Shown here one piece after another: positions 19,785 to 59,006 of a DNA stretch of 64,000 bases (positions are counted from its first letter, which is position 1; every line of letters begins with the position of its first letter). The stretch covers positions 2,643 through 66,642 of the forward strand of contig CAYICB010000003.1 of NCBI GenBank assembly GCA_964361825.1, read 5' to 3'. This DNA is from an uncultured Candidatus Saccharibacteria bacterium. GTDB lineage: Bacteria > Patescibacteriota > Minisyncoccia > Phycocordibacterales > JACOZG01. The position numbers and the translations under genes were made by a program. Under the pieces are notes generated by a model that saw nothing but the letters and a program-made list of their open reading frames with translations, was not told where the DNA came from and ran no database searches.

Positions 19785-20764
19785 TACTCGCCGGTTTGTT
19801 TGGGTCTAATTTCTCCACCTTGATTAATATCGAAGACCTTGGTGCTTTGATAAGCGGGGTCATCATCGTCCGAGCCGGTGAGATCGCTCTCGTCGACATC
19901 AAAAGAGTCATCAACCGTTTGGTCGAAGTGATCACCATCAGAATCTTGGCCGCTAATGACATAAGTGACCAAATAAGTTCCGGGTTCGGTAATATTAGAA
20001 AAGATGCCAGTGTAAACGCCCGGTGAGACCTCGATAAGATTAACAGTAAACACTTGACCACTAGGTGAGGTGATAATAGCGATTACCGAGGCACCGGTAA
20101 TGGGGATCGTGACATTAAGACCAATGGTTTCTTGAATCGTGATGGTGAGGGTAGCATTGCCACCACTGATTGTTTCTTCACTGCCACCGTTGTCGTCCTC
20201 TTCTGAGTCATTGGAACCTGGCGTGCTCTCAATGTCTTCATCGGTCGACACATTAACGGCAAAGTTACTAGAAGTGTCATTGCTATTATTGGTCACCACA
20301 ATCTCAAAATTTCCGCTACTGGTGCCATTGGGGTTAATTTGGAAAAAGGTGGCCACGCGACCGGTGTCGGGATCAGCGATTACGGTTTTGGTAATAGTAA
20401 AATCATTGGGATTAGTGCCCGGAGCGGGGATAATGGTGGGAGTGAGCGCGGCCGAGTCGCTAACGACCTTAATGGTGGTGTTGCCATCTATCCCAAGCGC
20501 TTCTTCATAATGAGCGTTTGGTTGCAGGGCTTGCAGGAGGGCGCCCGAGAGACCGGCTTCCCAGATGAGGCGGCTTTTTTTGGGAGCGGTTTTTTGGAGG
20601 GTTTCTGTTTGGTTTGATTCTGGGGTGGGGAGCGCTTCGCCACCGGTAAGCCACCAGAGGGTTAAACTGGTGGCAATGAGTACCACTAAGCCCAAAACTA
20701 AGGGAACATTAGCTAAACCGTGATTTTTCATCATGCTATAATCATAGCCCATTGTGACCGACAT
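19781..20764 (-). CDS. secreted acidic Ser/Thr/Asp-rich surface protein
   Basis: signal peptide/TM (LVLGLVVLIATS), low-complexity acidic regions. Confidence 0.5.
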   Translation of the reverse strand: MSVTMGYDYSMMKNHGLANVPLVLGLVVLIATSLTLWWLTGGEALPTPESNQTETLQKTAPKKSRLIWEAGLSGALLQALQPNAHYEEALGIDGNTTIKVVSDSAALTPTIIPAPGTNPNDFTITKTVIADPDTGRVATFFQINPNGTSSGNFEIVVTNNSNDTSSNFAVNVSTDEDIESTPGSNDSEEDDNGGSEETISGGNATLTITIQETIGLNVTIPITGASVIAIITSPSGQVFTVNLIEVSPGVYTGIFSNITEPGTYLVTYVISGQDSDGDHFDQTVDDSFDVDESDLTGSDDDDPAYQSTKVFDINQGGEIRPKQTGEY

Positions 20765-22436
20765 CGTAAATCAACTCTTGGCGCGGCGGGGGATAACTAC
20801 GGAAGCGGCGCGCGAGCGCTTTTTGCGACCAAGTTATGAGCGCGATCTCCACGACCCTTTTCTGTTCTCGCAGATGAACCAAGCGGTGACAAGAATTTTG
20901 CACGCGCTAGAGAAAAACGAGAAAATCACGATTTTTGCCGATTACGATGCCGATGGGGTGCCGGCGGCCGTGATTTTGAGTGAATTTTTTAAAAAAGTGG
21001 GTCATGCCAATTTCGACGTTTACATCCCCGACCGGCATGAAGAAGAATTTGGGCTCAAAGAATTTGCGGTGCAAAAAATTGCGGCGACTGATACCAAGCT
21101 CGTGATTACGGTCGATTGCGGCATCACCGATCTGCCCGGCGCGGCCTTACTCGCTTCGCATGCCATTGATCTTATTATTACCGACCACCATTTGCCACCA
21201 GAACAATTGCCGAAAGCAGTAGCGATTATTGATCCCAAGTTGCTCGGCGATGAGTATCCGGAGAAAATGTTGTGTGGCGCTGGGGTGGCTTTCAAACTCG
21301 TGCAGGCTTTGATCAAAATTTTGAGCCAGAGGACCGTCCTTAAGAACCCAAACCCAAGGACGGTCCTCGGGGACATCGCGCCCGGTTGGGAAAAGTGGTT
21401 GCTCGACCTAGTGGCGATTGCGACCGTTAGTGATATGGTGCCGCTCACGGGCGAGAATCGGGCTTTGGTTTACTTCGGGCTTAAGGTCTTGCGTCAGACG
21501 CCGCGACTCGGCTTGCGCGCCCTCGCTCGGGTTTTAAAACTTGATCCACAATATCTCACCGAGGATGATATTGCTTTTTCCATCGGGCCGCGGATTAATT
21601 CGGCGAGCCGAATGACGCATGGTCGCGAGGCATATGAGCTGCTTGCTACAACCGATCTTGCCCGAGCCGAGGCTTTGGCTAAGCATTTAGACTTGAAAAA
21701 TCGCGAACGGCGAGACGAGGTACAGAAAATTATTGATAGTGTGGGGGTGATGACCGAGAGGGCCTTGCCGCCGGTGCTGATCTTTGGCCATGAAGATTGG
21801 TCGCTTGGGGTTTTGGGTTTGGCGGCTTCGAAATTGGTAGAACAATTTTCTCGAACAGTTTTCATCTGGGGGAAAAATGGTAGCGGTTTGATAAAAGGTT
21901 CTTGTCGCGCCGCGCCCGGAGTGAATGTGGTGGCGCTGATGGGTGCCGCTGGGCCAAATATTTTTTCCAACTTCGGTGGCCATGCAGCTTCGGGCGGATT
22001 CTCGCTGGTGCCAGAAAAATTGCCTAAACTCGAAGCTGGTTTGTTGGCGGCTTATGAACTGGCACCGCGAGGCGAGGGGGCGGTGGCGAAGGAGCCCGAT
22101 CTTGACTTACTGCTCGATGAGATCACTGAAGATTTTTGCGCCAACTTGCATCAATTGGCGCCGTTTGGTTTAGGGAATCCGAAGCCGCTACTCTCTTTCC
22201 GCCACGCGCCATTGATGCAGAAGAAAACTTTTGGTTCAACTCATCTCGAATTACAATTTTCTCGCGAGTTCAGCCGACCAATTAAAGCGATTAAATTCTT
22301 CGCCGCAGAATTGGCCAAGAACGATGACTTGGTGCCGGGGGCGATAATTAATTTGCTCGCCAATTTAGAAAAGTCATATTTCCGCGGTCGACCCGAGCTC
22401 CGCTTGCGGATTGTCGATCTCACGCCGGTGCGTTAG
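20754..22436 (+). CDS. recJ: single-stranded-DNA-specific exonuclease RecJ
   Basis: DHH motifs (ADYDADGV, DHH), DHHA1 region. Confidence 0.9.
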   Translation: MTDIVNQLLARRGITTEAARERFLRPSYERDLHDPFLFSQMNQAVTRILHALEKNEKITIFADYDADGVPAAVILSEFFKKVGHANFDVYIPDRHEEEFGLKEFAVQKIAATDTKLVITVDCGITDLPGAALLASHAIDLIITDHHLPPEQLPKAVAIIDPKLLGDEYPEKMLCGAGVAFKLVQALIKILSQRTVLKNPNPRTVLGDIAPGWEKWLLDLVAIATVSDMVPLTGENRALVYFGLKVLRQTPRLGLRALARVLKLDPQYLTEDDIAFSIGPRINSASRMTHGREAYELLATTDLARAEALAKHLDLKNRERRDEVQKIIDSVGVMTERALPPVLIFGHEDWSLGVLGLAASKLVEQFSRTVFIWGKNGSGLIKGSCRAAPGVNVVALMGAAGPNIFSNFGGHAASGGFSLVPEKLPKLEAGLLAAYELAPRGEGAVAKEPDLDLLLDEITEDFCANLHQLAPFGLGNPKPLLSFRHAPLMQKKTFGSTHLELQFSREFSRPIKAIKFFAAELAKNDDLVPGAIINLLANLEKSYFRGRPELRLRIVDLTPVR

Positions 22437-22446
22437 GATTTAGTCT

Positions 22447-23406
22447 ATGATAAGAGATTTTGATCGGTGGAATAAACGGAAAAAAGAAATTCAAACAGCC
22501 CTTCCAAAAGGAAACTTTTTCTATAAAGAAGGTGAAATTTGGTGGTGTGGACTTGGTGTGAATCTTGGAGTGGAAACGGACGGGAAGCATGATAACTTCG
22601 AGCGACCGGTTTTAATTATTAAAGTTTTTAATCGAGAGATGGTTTGGGTTTTGCCAGTGACTAGTGTTTTTCACCAAGCGCCATTTTATTACAAGTTTGA
22701 TCATGGTGGAGAGGATCAGTGGGTGGTCTTATCTCAAATTAGAACAGTAAGTACAAAAAGATTGTTTAGGAAAATCAGGGTATTAGACGAAACTGATTTT
22801 GAAAAAATTAAAGTTTTAGTAATTGATTACCTTAAAAAACGAAACCCCGCCGTGAGGCGGGGAATCTCGGAGCCCGAAGGCAATAATGGTTCTAGTCTAA
22901 TCGATGAGAAAGAGCTTGTCAAGCCGGTTATCCCCAATCAGCCTAAAATTATTCTCTATACCGATGGTGGTTCGCGGGGGAATCCGGGTATCGCTGGGGC
23001 CGGAGCCGTGATTACTGATGAGGCGGGGAAAGTGATCAAAGAAGCGTCGAAGCCGCTTGGGATTACGACCAATAATGAGGCTGAGTATCAAGGGGTAATC
23101 TTGGGTCTCGAGACAACTAAGAAACATTTTGGCCCGTCTATGGGCCGGGCAAGTAAAGAGAAAATTCGCGATTTAGACATTACGCTCAAGCTCGATAGTG
23201 AACTGGTGGCCAAGCAATTGCGGGGCGAATATCAGATTAAAGAAGATAATCTTGGTAAACTCTTCCTCAAAATTTGGAATGCCCGCGTCGCCGACTTCCC
23301 TAAGCTCACCATTACCCATATCCCGCGCGAACAAAACTCCGCCGCCGATTGCCTCGCCAACGAAGCGATGGATGCCCAAGAAAAAGCCCCAAAACCCTTA
23401 TTTTAA
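22447..23406 (+). CDS. fusion protein: N-terminal MazF/PemK-fold domain + C-terminal RNase HI domain
   Basis: N-terminus GEIWWCGLGVNLGVETDG..RPVLII...LSQIRTVSTKRL matches MazF/PemK; C-terminus ILYTDGGSRGNPG..TNNEAEY..D is RNase H. Confidence 0.75.
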   Translation: MIRDFDRWNKRKKEIQTALPKGNFFYKEGEIWWCGLGVNLGVETDGKHDNFERPVLIIKVFNREMVWVLPVTSVFHQAPFYYKFDHGGEDQWVVLSQIRTVSTKRLFRKIRVLDETDFEKIKVLVIDYLKKRNPAVRRGISEPEGNNGSSLIDEKELVKPVIPNQPKIILYTDGGSRGNPGIAGAGAVITDEAGKVIKEASKPLGITTNNEAEYQGVILGLETTKKHFGPSMGRASKEKIRDLDITLKLDSELVAKQLRGEYQIKEDNLGKLFLKIWNARVADFPKLTITHIPREQNSAADCLANEAMDAQEKAPKPLF

Positions 23407-23678
23407 GCCATATTTTAGCCTACTTGACAAATGGCTGCCAACTATGCTAAGCTATTGGGTAGGAAGTGAAGACAGGACCTTGAAAACTGAATAGCGAAGT
23501 ATAGGAAAACAATCGTTGAAAAACGACAATTGTTATTCCTCTTCGTCTCACGGAGGGATACGGGATAAATAACCGTTAAGCCTCGGTGCGACAAGAGGGA
23601 TCGCAAACTTTCGCAATGGGCGAGAGGGTGATCCAAAAGTGAGTTTTTTCCTGAGAAGATCGGGAGAAGGAGATAGTT

Positions 23679-24188
23679 ATGTTTAGCGTTAGTGATCCTT
23701 GCGTCATCGGATTTTATCGGGGAATGGCCATCACCAGCCAGAGCGATCTGGCTGACCAGCCGGAGGGATCGTACGTAAGTACGGTCTACCCGGCTTGGGT
23801 GGCGGCGAGCATGTTGGAAAACATGCTCGGGGCCACTCAGGCGGACCTTCGCCTTGCGGCGAAGGTCAAGGCCGTGGCCCGGCCCCTCACGGAGGAGGAG
23901 CTCGAAGAAATCGGCAACAAGGTTGTTGCCCGACTGAACAACCTTCCCCACATGGAGGTGGGGGAGGTCGAAGACGTGGAGGAGGTCGTCAACATCTTTT
24001 TTGAGGTCGTTGACTTCCTCTCCGTTGCCGGAGAGAGGGAGGCGGTGACGGAGGTCGTACGATTGGCGATGGAGAACGCTCAAAAGGGGTTGTTCTCCCC
24101 AGCCGCCGTTCAGGCGGCGGCAATCGCCGAAAGGGCGACCGATCGGAGGATCTTGGGGATTGTGAAGGAGGTAATCAACAACAATTAG
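23679..24188 (+). CDS. hypothetical acidic protein (GC-rich islet gene A)
   Basis: strong SD GGAGAAGGAG 7 nt upstream; GC-rich codon usage; opposite-strand ORF judged to be a GC artefact. Confidence 0.5.
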   Translation: MFSVSDPCVIGFYRGMAITSQSDLADQPEGSYVSTVYPAWVAASMLENMLGATQADLRLAAKVKAVARPLTEEELEEIGNKVVARLNNLPHMEVGEVEDVEEVVNIFFEVVDFLSVAGEREAVTEVVRLAMENAQKGLFSPAAVQAAAIAERATDRRILGIVKEVINNN

Positions 24189-24203
24189 AAAAAACGAGTT
24201 TCT

Positions 24204-24236
24204 GGAGATTTATCGTTATCAAATCTCCACTTTGTT
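24204..24236 (+). terminator. hairpin GGAGATTT/AAATCTCC + T-rich tail
   Basis: perfect 8-bp stem, 9-nt loop, then ACTTTGTT. Confidence 0.45.
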
Positions 24237-24294
24237 CAGCTAATGACTTGGGTCGTTGGCTGATCGGGTTAACCCAAAGAAAGGTAGTGCGAAC

Positions 24295-24489
24295 ATGATG
24301 TCTGAATCGGATATGAATCGGATCATGAAGAGGGTCGAGGACGACATGAATTTTTTGGCTGGATTACCGGCCAGAAAGGAGGAAGAGGAACGGCTCGGGC
24401 GTCCCTGGGGGGAATGGACCATTCAGGAAATGATGGCATGGATGGACAGGGCTCTCCCCCTCTTTGCGGAAGCGCCACCGCAAAACTAA
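24295..24489 (+). CDS. small hypothetical protein (islet gene B, ~64 aa)
   Basis: ATG with AAAGAAAGG SD-like upstream; the ORF-track TTG start lies further 5'. Confidence 0.4.
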   Translation: MMSESDMNRIMKRVEDDMNFLAGLPARKEEEERLGRPWGEWTIQEMMAWMDRALPLFAEAPPQN

Positions 24490-24614
24490 ATGGCGCAAAA
24501 GGGAACGCGATTCGCTACGGCAATCACGTTTCCCTTCTGATTGAACCCGTAAACATGTGCTTGTGGGTTCAATGGAAGATTTTTTCCCGAGAAGATCGGG
24601 AGAAGGAGATAGTC

Positions 24615-24812
24615 ATGTTTATCGTCACAGTTCATGCGCAAGAAGGAAACGGGGACCATGTGCTTGGAACAAGCGGCGAATTCGCCACTTGTTCCTCGGA
24701 GGTGGCCGTGGCGGGGTTTGCCACGGCCGAGGCTGCCGTTGCCGCTGGAATGGCGGCGGTGAATCGCTTTGGGGCAACCCCCAAAGCGGTCGAGGTCCGC
24801 ACCTCGTTCTAA
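24615..24812 (+). CDS. small hypothetical protein (islet gene C, 65 aa)
   Basis: preceded by a ~40-nt leader near-identical to that of gene A, including GGAGAAGGAG. Confidence 0.5.
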   Translation: MFIVTVHAQEGNGDHVLGTSGEFATCSSEVAVAGFATAEAAVAAGMAAVNRFGATPKAVEVRTSF

Positions 24813-24824
24813 AGCGGTGGGCAC

Positions 24825-24858
24825 AGGAGAAGGCCCAAACAAACTTCTCCTACTTATT
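24825..24858 (+). terminator. hairpin AGGAGAAG/CTTCTCCT
   Basis: 8-bp stem, 11-nt loop after gene C. Confidence 0.4.
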
Positions 24859-24939
24859 GAGTTCATCACAATGGGTGGTGGATTCATGGGTAGAACATTA
24901 AAAATTTAATGGGGCTTCGGCCCCAGAAAGGAAGTGTTT

Positions 24940-25965
24940 ATGACACTTCAGTTTGCAATTCTCGACCCCCGCAACATTCCGACCGCCGCGGAGGCCAACG
25001 ACAAGGTGTTCGCAAATCCGGTTTACGGAATCGAAGTAACGGTGCCCGCGCTCGCAAAGCGCTGCATCGCGAATCTCGACCCGCAACACACCGGTGGCGA
25101 TGCCAATCGCGCGGCCATCGAAGACGCGCTGACGGCCGAGCTCCCGACCGAGGGTTCCACTCTCGCGACGGTTCGCGCCGATCTGGACGCCGTCGGCGCG
25201 ATGGTTGTTTTCGGCCTTAGATTGAGAGGCCGAATGATAGAACCCTCTGCATGGAGGGTTTGTTCAATTTGTGGGGCGGGGCTACAATCTTGCTTTTTTG
25301 TTTGCGGCCACTGCGGTTGGGTGGTTGGGAGCCACTCTAACGAAGCAGTGGCGACCAGATTTCAACAGGTGGCCGCTGCCGACAAGTTCGCGCGTGGTGG
25401 CTGGTTGGGCCCCAAACCGTTACCAACCAAGGAAAACCCTTGGCCGAGCGAGGGGGCAGCGGATTCGACTCAATCGCTCGCGGCAATCGCCGCGGCGGTT
25501 ACGGACTTCAAGGTCCCGATGGCCGATCGCGTCGCCACGATGGAGAAGTGGCTACTGACGGGTGAAGAGCCCAAGCAGTACCGCGACTCCGTCGAGAAGG
25601 AACGGCTCGACATGATCGCTGCCCTCGAAAGCGGAGCGATCAGGTGCGAGACGCGCTCCGGCGGCAAGATCGCGGTCGTCGAGAGCACGCACCGAGCGGC
25701 CACCAGCGTGGGGTACTCACTCGCGCCAGTCGTGGTTGCTCGCAATCCGGCCTTCAAGCTGGGCGGTGGTGAGGCTCACGCGAAGTACACGGTTTGTGCC
25801 TTCGAGGCAGGCAAGTTTGCGGACATCAAGTCCGCGCTTGCCGAGCTCGCGACGATCGAAGCTGGTTGGGGCGGTTCGCCCGTCATCGGTGGTAGCCCCC
25901 AGGGTGTGAGTTCCGCCTTGACGATCGATCAGGTCGTCGAGGTGGTTGAGAAGCATCTTAAGTAA
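24940..25965 (+). CDS. hypothetical 342-aa protein with central Cys cluster (CSICG..CGHCG)
   Basis: SD AGAAAGGAAG; GC-rich; no family recognised. Confidence 0.55.
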   Translation: MTLQFAILDPRNIPTAAEANDKVFANPVYGIEVTVPALAKRCIANLDPQHTGGDANRAAIEDALTAELPTEGSTLATVRADLDAVGAMVVFGLRLRGRMIEPSAWRVCSICGAGLQSCFFVCGHCGWVVGSHSNEAVATRFQQVAAADKFARGGWLGPKPLPTKENPWPSEGAADSTQSLAAIAAAVTDFKVPMADRVATMEKWLLTGEEPKQYRDSVEKERLDMIAALESGAIRCETRSGGKIAVVESTHRAATSVGYSLAPVVVARNPAFKLGGGEAHAKYTVCAFEAGKFADIKSALAELATIEAGWGGSPVIGGSPQGVSSALTIDQVVEVVEKHLK

Positions 25966-26002
25966 ATGAGATGCTGGCCACCGGAAACGGCCGAGGAAGA
26001 GT

Positions 26003-26036
26003 TTCCGAAAATTGGACAAACAAGCTCTGCTGAAAG
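26003..26036 (+). terminator. rho-independent terminator
   Basis: AGCTCTGC-TGAAAG-GCGGAGCT followed by TTTTTCTTTTTT. Confidence 0.65.
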
Positions 26037-26149
26037 GCGGAGCTTTTTCTTTTTTGCTGGACAAGATTTGGTAAGTGTGCGAGAGTGGGGGCGGAATAGT
26101 ATTGTCTTCGCGAGGCGGAGACTCGCTGGGTTATTGAAAGGAGTGAGCC

Positions 26150-55857: not shown

Positions 55858-56145
55858 ATTAATTTTTTATTTTGCCAACAAACACAAAAAGCCCACCGCC
55901 AGGCGACAACCTTTCGGTCGTCCACACCTCTTTCGAAGCGTGACCAATCACGGTGAACCTAGACGATGGGTTCTTTACCCGTGATTGGTTTTTTAAGCCA
56001 TGCCCAACTAAACAGTTGGGTTTAGGCCATTATTAAATTGTGCTTACAATTTAGCATTAAATTCGCACAGAGAAAACAACCCGTATCAATTATATGATCG
56101 AGTGGTTTACCATGAGCGAGTTCGTCTTTCAACGAACGAGTCGAA

Positions 56146-56524
56146 TGGAGATGCCGGGAATCGAACCCGGGTGCAGAAAGAGATCTCAAGTAGGTCTACA
56201 AGCGTAGTTGGTTTGGTGTTGTCGGGAGTGGCATAGAAAGCCAACAAAAACGCACACCCCGTAGCTCTAGGTTTTCGTCTCTCGCCTCGAGCGCGGGCGG
56301 GAGCTTATTCCGAATTTATGACACCACTTTGATCTTATCGGAAGTCAGACCAAGTGATGTCGCTTAGGCTAAAGCGTAAGCGAAAGGAAGAGGATATGGC
56401 GAAGCCACACCTTCTCCCTCGTTAGATAAGTTGGCACTTATCAGTGTGCCGCGGTTTTACGAGTGGGCGGCAACTCGGCTTGCATAGCAAGAGAGTGATC
56501 CTTCTGTCGAAGCCAATCATCCCC
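56146..56524 (-). ncRNA. ssrA: tmRNA (SsrA)
   Basis: 5' GGGGATGATTGGCTTCGACAG; 3' T-arm CCCGGGTTCGATTCCCGG + acceptor CATCTCC with G3:U70 (Ala identity); internal frame ends ..PFAYALA-TAA; immediately downstream of smpB. Confidence 0.88.
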
Positions 56525-57026: not shown

Positions 57027-58946
57027 GTGATGAAAAAGATGTCAAAATTGAATAAAACCAGTCCGCGAGGCTTTGGTCAATTTGGTCGCCAAATTGCTTC
57101 CACGGTCTTGATTTTTCTCGTTTTGCTCGGAATCTATTCTGCGGTGACCAGCAATCAGCAAACCGCCAAAGAGCTAACTTTATCAGAATTAGCCCAAGCG
57201 ATTAATCAGGGTGAGGTGGCCAAAATTGTGATTCAAGGCGATGCTTTAGCTGTGACCCTGCAAACCGGGGAAGAGCTTCGGTCGCAAAAAGAGGCCGAAA
57301 CTTCGCTCTCCGAAAGTTTGGCTAATTATGGCGTTTTGCCGACTAGTTTGGGCGGGGTTTCGGTGGCGGTGGCTAATCCCTCGGGCCTTACTTTTTGGTT
57401 GCTCAATTTATTGCCTTTTATTTTACCAGCGATTTTTGTACTTCTGATTTTTTGGTTTATCTCGCGCCAAGTGCGCGGGGCTTCGGTGCAAGCGTTCTCT
57501 TTTGGTCAATCGCGCGCGCGAGTAATTGACCCCAATGATCAGTCGCAGAAAATTACTTTCAAAGATGTGGCTGGCGTAAAGGAGGCCAAAGAAGAATTGT
57601 TAGAAATTGTCGATTTTCTCAAAAGTCCAAAAAAGTTTTTAGACATTGGCGCCAAGATTCCCAAGGGTGTTTTGCTTATTGGTGCGCCGGGGACCGGTAA
57701 AACTTTGTTGGCGCGCGCGGTGGCGGGTGAAGCGGGTGTGCCCTTCTTTTATCTCTCGGGTTCGGAGTTTGTTGAGATGTTTGTAGGCGTGGGCGCTTCG
57801 CGCGTGCGCGACCTCTTCAAAATGGCCAAGAAAACGGCCCCAGCGATTATTTTTATTGATGAAATCGATGCCATCGGTCGTCATCGCGGTGGCGGCATGG
57901 GTGGCGGCAATGATGAGCGCGAGCAAACACTTAATCAAATTCTCGTGGAGATGGATGGCTTCGAGCCTAATGAAAAACTGATTGTAATGGCGGCCACCAA
58001 TCGGCCTGATGTGCTCGATATCGCGCTTTTGCGCCCCGGTCGCTTTGACCGTCGCGTGGTGCTCGATAAGCCGGATCTTAAAGATCGTGAAGAAATTCTT
58101 GGCATTTATGCCCGCAAGAAACCGCTCCACGAGGATGTGAACTTGCGCGTCATTGCTCAACGCACGCCCGGTTTCTCTGGCGCGGATCTCGCTAATGTGA
58201 TGAATGAAGGCGCGATTTTGGCGGCGCGCGAGAATCGCAAGCAGATTACGCAATACGATCTCATTCGCTCGGTGGAGAAGGTAATTCTTGGTCCGGAGCG
58301 CAAGAGTCATATCTTGTCTGAACGAGAAAAGAAAATCACGGCTTACCACGAGATGGGCCATGCGCTCATTGGCTCGGTTTTGCCGCATTCGGATCCGGTG
58401 CACAAGGTCTCGATTATTTCTCGCGGGCATGCGGCGGGCTACACGCTTAAATTGCCGTTCGAAGACCGCAAACTGGAGTCGAAGAAAGAATTCTTGGATG
58501 AAATCGCGGCGCTCCTCGGTGGTTATGCCGCCGAGCAACTGATTTTTGGCGATATTACTACCGGCGCTTCTAATGATCTTGCGGTGGCGACCTATACGGC
58601 GCGTAATATGGTCACCAAGTATGGTATGAGCGAGAAGCTCGGGCCGGTGGCCTTCGACACTGGCGGCGAACGCCACTTGGTGAGCGGCGGGCAACTAGTG
58701 GAGAAGGCGTCATCGGAGGCGGTGTCGGCGCTCATTGATCAAGAAATTTCTAAAATTCTTAGCGAAGGTCTGACGCGCGCTAATCAAGTGCTTACCGATT
58801 ACCGCGCCGCTCTCGACGCGATGTCGGAAGAACTGATTAAAGTCGAAACCATCGATCGCGAAGACTTCGATAAACTGCTTATTTTGAACGGCATCAAGCC
58901 GAAGGAGGATACTAATAAGGTTGTGGATAACTTATCGGCCCGGTAG
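57027..58946 (+). CDS. ftsH: ATP-dependent zinc metalloprotease FtsH
   Basis: two N-terminal TM, AAA Walker A/B, SRH, HEMGH zinc site. Confidence 0.95.
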
Positions 58947-59006
58947 GATTCGAACCTACAACCAGCCGTGTATAAGACGGCGGCTCCACCATTGAGCTAC
59001 GGGCCG
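58935..59006 (-). tRNA. tRNA, anticodon UAU (Ile, AUA-decoding), no encoded CCA
   Basis: cloverleaf: acceptor CGGCCCG/CGGGCCG, D GCTC..GAGC, anticodon stem GCCGT/ACGGC with loop CTTATAC, T-arm GTAGG-TTCGAAT-CCTAC; overlaps ftsH stop by ~11 nt on the opposite strand. Confidence 0.7.

Follow-up and report, generated by a model that had tools for sequence, protein, structure and literature searches.

What is a gene that appears to join an mRNA-cutting toxin of the MazF/PemK type to RNase HI, with no antitoxin gene before it, doing directly behind recJ? The open reading frame in question lies at 22447..23406 (+) of the window (the whole 64,000-nucleotide stretch of DNA that was analysed) and encodes 319 amino acids. 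An initial annotation, made from the sequence alone, described it as a non-standard fusion of a MazF/PemK-fold domain to a complete RNase H domain, lacking a preceding antitoxin, and proposed either a domesticated toxin fold used as a substrate-binding module or a novel defence or R-loop processing enzyme. We find that the observation itself holds: the frame, its coordinates, the sequence motifs listed for each half and both domains are as described. The features of the locus, to which we refer throughout, are as follows:

20754..22436, plus strand: recJ (DHH/DHHA1/RecJ_OB), ending 10 nt upstream of the fusion; its linkage to rnhA is conserved in relatives.
22447..22836, plus strand: MazF/PemK domain, residues 1–130, including a subfamily-specific N-terminal helix (residues 4–17, KDFDxWNxxKK) and the catalytic residues R53 (22603-22605) and T72 (22660-22662).
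22837..22941, plus strand: interdomain linker, residues 131–165, predicted to be disordered; it is the translation of the candidate antisense sRNA gene and its promoter.
22834..22890, minus strand: candidate antisense small RNA of about 50–55 nt, comprising a single-stranded leader, a hairpin (GCC-UUCG-GGC), single-stranded UCCGAG, a terminator hairpin (CCCCGCC-UCAC-GGCGGGG) and then a U-run.
22894..22922, minus strand: predicted sigma-70-type promoter of the antisense sRNA, TTGACA (22922-22917), a 17 nt spacer and TAGACT (22899-22894).
22942..23406, plus strand: RNase HI domain, residues 166–319, plus the stop codon, with the DEDD residues D173 (22963-22965), E213 (23083-23085), D250 (23194-23196) and D301 (23347-23349); it has no start codon of its own.

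Working from the N-terminus, Pfam assigns PemK_toxin (PF02452) to residues 27–122 (E=1.2e-13, 51.7 bits against a cut-off of 23.1), and PHROG 9567 (‘MazF-like’) also matches (E=1e-16), whereas NCBIfam gave no hit for this half of the protein; assignment to an unrelated fold, which had been named in advance as a result that would overturn the annotation, was therefore not what the profile searches returned. Taken alone, the N-terminal half aligns with the MazF of B. subtilis/B. anthracis at an E-value of only about 0.03, but the alignment is full-length and pairs R53 with B. subtilis R25 and T72 with T48 (E. coli R29/T52). An AlphaFold2 model of residues 1–165, built on 105 family sequences, has a core pLDDT of 86–97, falling below 50 for residues 134–160, and in a Foldseek search of the PDB all of the top hits for this model are MazF structures (TM 0.72–0.82 normalised to target; rmsd 1.8–2.7 Å), consistent with the MazF/Kid SH3-like barrel. 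In the C-terminal half, Pfam places RVT_3 on residues 172–307 (E=1e-19) and RNase_H on residues 167–227 (E=7e-9). This half is 50–60% identical to LC11-RNase H1 (PDB: 3u3g; E=7e-34 over residues 167–310) and also matches M. tuberculosis Rv2228c (PDB: 3hst; E=1e-21); the NCBIfam RNase HI models match below their full-length cut-offs (PRK07238, region 3–137). D173 and E213 align with E. coli D10 and E48, whilst D250 and D301 align with acidic residues of LC11-RNase H1, for which entry 4h8k carries a D->N change at the position equivalent to D250. A joint MAFFT alignment of the fusion with both single-domain families misaligned the RNase H rows and was discarded.

The fusion is not an assembly artefact. 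The same continuous, in-frame junction is seen in four independent assemblies from the Hainich aquifer, representing three alleles: one locus (L002/P0001) is identical to the window apart from a 10-nt patch, a second (L025) is 87% identical, and a third (L001/P0002, with its MAG contig L015) is 54% identical. Between the 54%-identical orthologues both domains are conserved, including all four DEDD residues, whilst the linker differs in sequence and length. Saying this, the fusion contigs other than the window are at roughly 3–4x coverage, and the L015 copy has an in-frame TGA at codon 185, in the RNase H part, where L001 has GGA; conversely, L001 reads TDGW where L015 reads TDGG. The architecture is also rare: no other protein combining the two domains was found in a word-indexed search of 5.8 billion proteins, in an exhaustive HMMER search of 1.84 billion representatives, or in a local re-scan of all retrieved proteins and loci. 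Multi-stretch hits from the exhaustive search proved to be tandem RNase H proteins; L021, with 33% identity over residues 1–232, showed no RNase H domain on local re-analysis; and P0004, considered as a possible frameshifted fusion, is truly stand-alone, located inside an ABC-transporter operon.

Which half, then, is the resident? The order PGK-recJ-[X-RNase H]-ComEC is conserved in relatives, with the identity of X varying. In one (P0006), X is a Pterin_4a domain; in another (P0007, a Vogelbacteria MAG), it is a module of about 90 aa preceded by a 72-aa ORF that overlaps it by 4 nt. Stand-alone homologues of this module hit the HigB-like and YoeB Pfam models, and the closest of them is predicted to fold as a YoeB/YafQ/RelE-type toxin (pLDDT 91.6; TM 0.71–0.78). 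In other genomes, NYN-RNase H fusions with the same domain order sit directly upstream of recJ. RNase HI is thus the housekeeping occupant linked to recJ, its N-terminus having picked up different modules, three of which (MazF, RelE/YoeB-like and NYN) are ssRNA endonuclease folds; in Patescibacteria it is also fused to NUDIX, ASCH, PTPS, formyltransferase and other domains.

The MazF part, in contrast, belongs to a subfamily of stand-alone proteins. Residues 1–150 retrieve 123 clusters of such proteins, of 125–155 aa and mostly from Patescibacteria, which share the additional N-terminal helix and are unusually conserved: W8, K12, W32, W33, G37, N39, G41, E43, G46, R53, P54, Q97 and R105 are invariant or nearly so, and the fusion keeps them all. 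R53 is invariant in 122 of 122 sequences, and T72 is Thr in 108 and Ser in 11 of the 122. The genes lie at unrelated sites (between aminoacyl-tRNA synthetase genes, next to pth, inside an ABC-transporter operon, next to a DGR) and on mobile elements, between terminase and portal in Campylobacter prophage CJIE4 and on Campylobacterota plasmids. No small co-directional partner recurs, and no MazE/PemI-type protein gene is adjacent in any of about 54 loci surveyed; the only recurring neighbours are MazF paralogues (tandem arrays of 2–4), NYN RNases and small GIY-YIG nucleases. Rare fusions to GNAT and HNH domains exist. At the locus itself recJ lies directly upstream, such that no protein antitoxin precedes the gene, and no PADLOC-DB 2.0 family matches at E<=1.

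A closer look at the linker suggests an unexpected, possible answer to the apparent absence of an antitoxin. The DNA encoding the tail after the MazF core is nearly identical between the window and the stand-alone gene P0004, although their MazF cores are only about 56% identical. The same stretch of about 50 nt recurs at the 3′ end of most family genes, with compensatory stem changes, and is translated in three different frames (GISEPEG, GESRSPK and GNLGGRSP); for this reason we rejected the idea that the conserved ‘KRNPA..G.SRxP’ tail is a protein motif. Read on the opposite strand, the element comprises TTGAC(A/T)-N16-18-TAnnnT, about 7 nt, a leader UA(C/U)AAAU (or CAUUAGU), a 3–5 bp hairpin, single-stranded NCCGAG, a 6–11 bp hairpin and a U-run; that is, a predicted promoter, two hairpins and a terminator. 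A strict promoter pattern is found on the minus strand in 71/88 family loci, against 6/88 on the plus strand of the same regions and 24/440 random regions of the same loci; for a hairpin plus T-run, the corresponding counts are 74/88, 22/88 and 93/440. The promoter is a consensus match, however, and promoters of Patescibacteria are poorly characterised. As the U-run is on the strand opposite to mazF, the hairpin cannot be the terminator of mazF itself, a possibility that we had considered.

The predicted structure is also strongly conserved. All 49 aligned examples fold on their own into the same two-hairpin shape, and RNAalifold, working from a MAFFT alignment, finds compensatory changes in 9 of 10 pairs. 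A covariance model gives 81 hits in 745 kb searched on both strands, 78 of which lie antisense at a mazF 3′ end and three of which are not next to mazF; the only hit in the window is at 22834-22890(-) (30 bits, E=2.4e-4). On the model alignment 96.6% of cells pair and all 10 pairs show double changes, with a covariation of 0.49 against 0.17 +/- 0.01 in shuffles (0 of 500 reach it) and 0.04–0.10 for slid partners. That alignment is fitted to the structure, although the single-sequence folds and the MAFFT-based result agree with it; moreover, the RNA is very short and half of it is a terminator hairpin, which would covary whatever its function. In the window, an independent scanner calls both the promoter (22922-22894, TTGACA-17-TAGACT) and the terminator (22862-22845 plus TTTCGTTTTT) on the minus strand, and the 55-nt RNA folds at -23.4 kcal/mol (z=-3.4). 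The 54%-diverged P0002 lineage keeps promoter, hairpins and terminator even though its linker is read in another frame. No Rfam 15 family matches at gathering threshold, at the element in the window or in 12 stand-alone loci, with only chance-level matches at E 0.3–5; inspection by eye found no hammerhead-like core motifs; and a pattern scan of viral contigs for the sRNA core found two chance matches without mazF.

The element also bears on how the two genes came to be joined. In 54 of 69 non-redundant stand-alone genes the mazF stop codon lies inside the candidate sRNA gene, and a 1-nt change in the hairpin-loop length shifts the frame past that stop. In the window, the sRNA promoter ends about 20 nt before the RNase H domain; neither the window nor L025 retains a canonical start codon for a separate RNase H, whereas P0002 still has ATG-164, exactly where stand-alone rnhA genes start. 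The window and L025 are 96–100% identical in DNA from the sRNA terminator onwards but only about 73% identical across the MazF core; synonymous divergence is saturated in the core (pS 0.73) and is 0.17 in the rest, with omega at 0.08 and 0.11, respectively, indicating strong purifying selection on the MazF part and that a functional MazF module was swapped as a unit, with the junction at the sRNA element.

The reading we favour, with moderate confidence, is that a small, mobile-looking cassette, formed from a stand-alone mazF without a protein antitoxin and a convergent antisense sRNA gene overlapping its 3′ end, landed in the short spacer between recJ and the resident rnhA and lost its stop codon. 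In this view the stop within the sRNA gene is out of frame, such that translation would run through that gene (now a disordered 35-aa linker) into rnhA; synthesis of RNase HI in the window lineage would then depend on translating mazF, making the cassette hard to lose, and any enzymatic cooperation between the two nucleases would be optional. Our data establish the two domains (that of MazF by profile and predicted fold), both catalytic sets, purifying selection on both halves, the conserved synteny, and the conservation in sequence and structure of the antisense element with its promoter and terminator, all still intact inside the fusion. In contrast, we only infer that the element is transcribed, that it acts as the RNA antitoxin or regulator of MazF (by antisense pairing with the mRNA and possibly by binding the protein), that the MazF domain is an active ssRNA endonuclease, and that RNase HI still cleaves RNA in RNA:DNA hybrids in its housekeeping role. 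The antitoxin role is suggested by analogy only, resting on the absence of any protein partner, the convergent-overlap layout typical of some type I systems (PMC6563280) and the precedent of RNA-inhibited toxins with a MazF-like fold in type III systems (PMC5086642); conservation of the single-stranded motifs across distant members hints at recognition by a protein and not only at antisense pairing.

The interpretation offered by the initial annotation is thus supported only in part. The architecture, the retained catalytic residues and the unusual nature of the fusion were all correct; but ‘no antitoxin’ is true only for proteins, given the conserved candidate antisense sRNA gene specific to this MazF subfamily, a domesticated binding module is not supported, and a dedicated R-loop or defence enzyme, whilst possible, is not indicated.

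Of the alternatives, the most serious is that the fusion is a selected bifunctional nuclease, MazF having been recruited to help RNase HI, together with RecJ, to clear R-loops or RNA primers by binding or cutting a single-stranded RNA tail whilst RNase H cuts the hybrid. The tight linkage to recJ, the acquisition of three independent ssRNase-type modules by the recJ-linked RNase HI, the retention of both active sites, and the report that E. coli MazF lowers R-loops at rrn operons (PMC12541390) all speak for it, and it cannot be excluded. We nevertheless consider it unlikely: the fusion is restricted to one aquifer lineage despite searches of billions of proteins, its MazF part is indistinguishable from the stand-alone cassette family and still carries the antisense element, the module is exchanged as a unit between strains, and RNase HI in these bacteria is also fused to many unrelated enzymes. 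Rather less likely still is that there is no sRNA, the element being only a terminator or repeat-type DNA element at the end of a mobile mazF gene whose product is a non-toxic housekeeping RNase in need of no antitoxin. Many stand-alone members do sit among housekeeping genes, terminator stems covary regardless of other function, and three model hits lack a mazF neighbour; but the U-run is on the wrong strand for mazF, a promoter with fixed spacing points at the element in 81% of loci, the second, non-terminator hairpin covaries at all 3 pairs, the single-stranded motifs UACAAAU and CCGAG are conserved, and family members also occur on prophages and plasmids and in tandem arrays.

That the MazF domain is a degenerate fold serving only to bind RNA is very unlikely. 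The lack of a protein antitoxin, and the presence in the fusion of G29 where 109 of 120 family members have Arg, might point that way, but P0002 and L025 have R29, R53, T72, E43, Q97, R105 and the other invariant positions are all kept, and omega is 0.08. An artefact joining two separate genes, for which low coverage and the internal stop of L015 could be cited, is all but excluded by the shared junction in three diverged alleles and by the missing RNase H start codon in the window and L025.

A more far-reaching possibility, which we hold tentatively and rate at slightly less than even, is that a widespread subfamily of true MazF/PemK toxins, found in Patescibacteria and also on Campylobacterota prophages and plasmids, is controlled by a dedicated convergent RNA of about 50 nt instead of a MazE protein: a type I/type III hybrid design that has not been described, and which in this lineage has become welded to the housekeeping RNase HI, the interdomain linker doubling as the antitoxin gene on the opposite strand. 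If the antisense RNA is the regulator, this would explain how a large family of apparently solitary MazF genes is tolerated in Candidate Phyla Radiation bacteria, and would add a bona fide MazF-family member to the RNA-controlled toxin systems. No paper in the literature searched describes a MazF-RNase H fusion or a PemK/MazF toxin with a convergent sRNA. The fusion, as we read it, is a clear example of how new multidomain proteins can arise, a non-coding RNA gene being read through to become a protein linker whilst remaining a gene on the other strand, and of how a selfish cassette can become hard to lose by supplying the translation start of a housekeeping gene; the parallel MazF, RelE/YoeB-like and NYN modules also make it possible to ask whether single-strand RNases cooperate with RNase H in removing R-loops or primers.

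Comparison with characterised systems places the gene as follows. With type II MazEF, PemIK and Kid-Kis it shares the protein family, the predicted fold, the catalytic Arg/Thr and the Glu of the S1-S2 loop, but differs in lacking an adjacent MazE/PemI/AbrB- or RHH-type partner, in its extra N-terminal helix, in the accompanying convergent antisense element and in its fusion to RNase HI. In type III systems (ToxIN, CptIN, TenpIN, AbiQ), an endoribonuclease toxin with a MazF/Kid-like fold is paired with a small structured RNA instead of a protein (PMC5086642), as is proposed here; there, however, the antitoxin is a tandem array of repeats upstream of the toxin on the same strand and separated from it by a terminator, whereas here the element is single-copy, downstream and on the opposite strand, and the toxin is a true PF02452 member, not a ToxN, CptN or TenpN. 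Type I systems such as B. subtilis txpA/RatA and C. difficile CD2517.1/RCd8 have a cis-encoded antisense RNA, transcribed convergently and overlapping the 3′ end of the toxin mRNA (PMC6563280), a layout that is predicted here from sequence alone and is strongly conserved; type I toxins are small hydrophobic peptides rather than a nuclease of about 130 aa, and plain antisense action does not require the observed conservation of primary sequence in the single-stranded parts of the RNA. SymE/SymR and RalR/RalA are type I systems with nuclease toxins. The solitary MazF of Myxococcus xanthus also lacks an adjacent antitoxin gene and has been recruited into host physiology (PMC2701414), but is reported to be controlled by a protein encoded elsewhere (MrpC), with no RNA partner or fusion described for it.

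Downstream of the fusion lies a GC-rich insert, the ORFs of which gave no Pfam, PHROG, PADLOC or phage match. As regards the RNase HI half, no architecture with a MazF-type partner appeared in the literature searched or among other database proteins; the domain itself is of the LC11/Rv2228c type (M. tuberculosis Rv2228c, RNase HI/CobC; LC11 and Sto-RNase H1), which is often fused to another domain, the partner here being an mRNA-interferase toxin.

Moving downstream from the fusion, we see that about 2.7 kb of GC-rich DNA (window 23407-26149; 52-63% GC, against about 48% in the flanks) lies between it and csrA. This stretch is absent from the orthologous locus L015/L001 (respectively the MAG copy and an independent assembly of the P0002-type fusion, the more diverged allele) and partly shared with L025, a further assembly carrying the fusion. 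Its ORFs (23679-24188, 24256-24489 and 24934-25965) have no Pfam, PHROG, PADLOC or phage match, whilst a 46-nt direct repeat, carrying both an RBS and an ATG, occurs at 23644 and 24580. Just downstream of the stop codon of the fusion, the scanner also calls a second promoter-like site on the minus strand (window 23412-23441(-); TTGGCA-18-TAAAAT, 10 of 12 matches), pointing back into the gene.

Within the RNase H region, a short patch of 10 nucleotide differences (window 23301-23343; REQNSAAD versus REQNAIAD) separates the window from both L025 and L002 (the assembly otherwise closest to the window), in sequence that is otherwise near-identical; it has the appearance of a small recombination tract between co-occurring strains. 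In the P0002-type fusion, the MAG copy has an in-frame TGA at codon 185 of the RNase H domain (L015 2575-2577), where the independent assembly L001 has GGA—a difference that could represent a sequencing error, strain variation or a decaying allele.

Other modules are found joined to RNase HI in association with recJ. In a Vogelbacteria MAG (locus L011 4786-5705; also L012), the RNase HI encoded downstream of recJ carries an N-terminal toxin module of predicted RelE/YoeB fold, preceded by a 72-aa ORF that overlaps it by 4 nt and could be an antitoxin. In two further loci (L105 5001-6158 and L106 5001-6059), NYN-RNase H fusion proteins, with the NYN domain N-terminal, are encoded immediately upstream of recJ; this being a second, more common ssRNase-plus-RNase HI architecture linked to recJ.

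For the stand-alone mazF genes, we observe tandem arrays of 2-4 diverged copies (loci L033 2361-5612 and L034 22-3868; also L026, L028 and L032), several with their own copy of the predicted antisense sRNA element and often next to NYN-domain RNases or small GIY-YIG nucleases. Rare fusions of GNAT-MazF (protein P0254) and MazF-HNH (protein P0351) type also exist. Three strong hits to the covariance model for the element are, however, not adjacent to a mazF gene (L006 4916-4970(+), L030 8280-8338(-) and L043 7327-7387(-), in three of the loci searched): one lies between the bAvd and reverse-transcriptase genes of a DGR, one after a LexA-like gene, and one after a 116-aa membrane ORF; these may be orphan copies or look-alike terminators. 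Campylobacterota plasmid and prophage (CJIE4) homologues of this MazF subfamily are followed by a similar pair of hairpins and a TATAAT-like box on the opposite strand (L108 2890-2960; L109 2895-2935), although this similarity was seen by eye only and they fell below the threshold of the covariance model.

Elsewhere in the window, at 55905-56028(-), 56143-56524(-) and 58935-59006(-), a search against Rfam finds a LOOT RNA (92.7 bits) directly next to the tmRNA gene (131 bits), and a tRNA further on.
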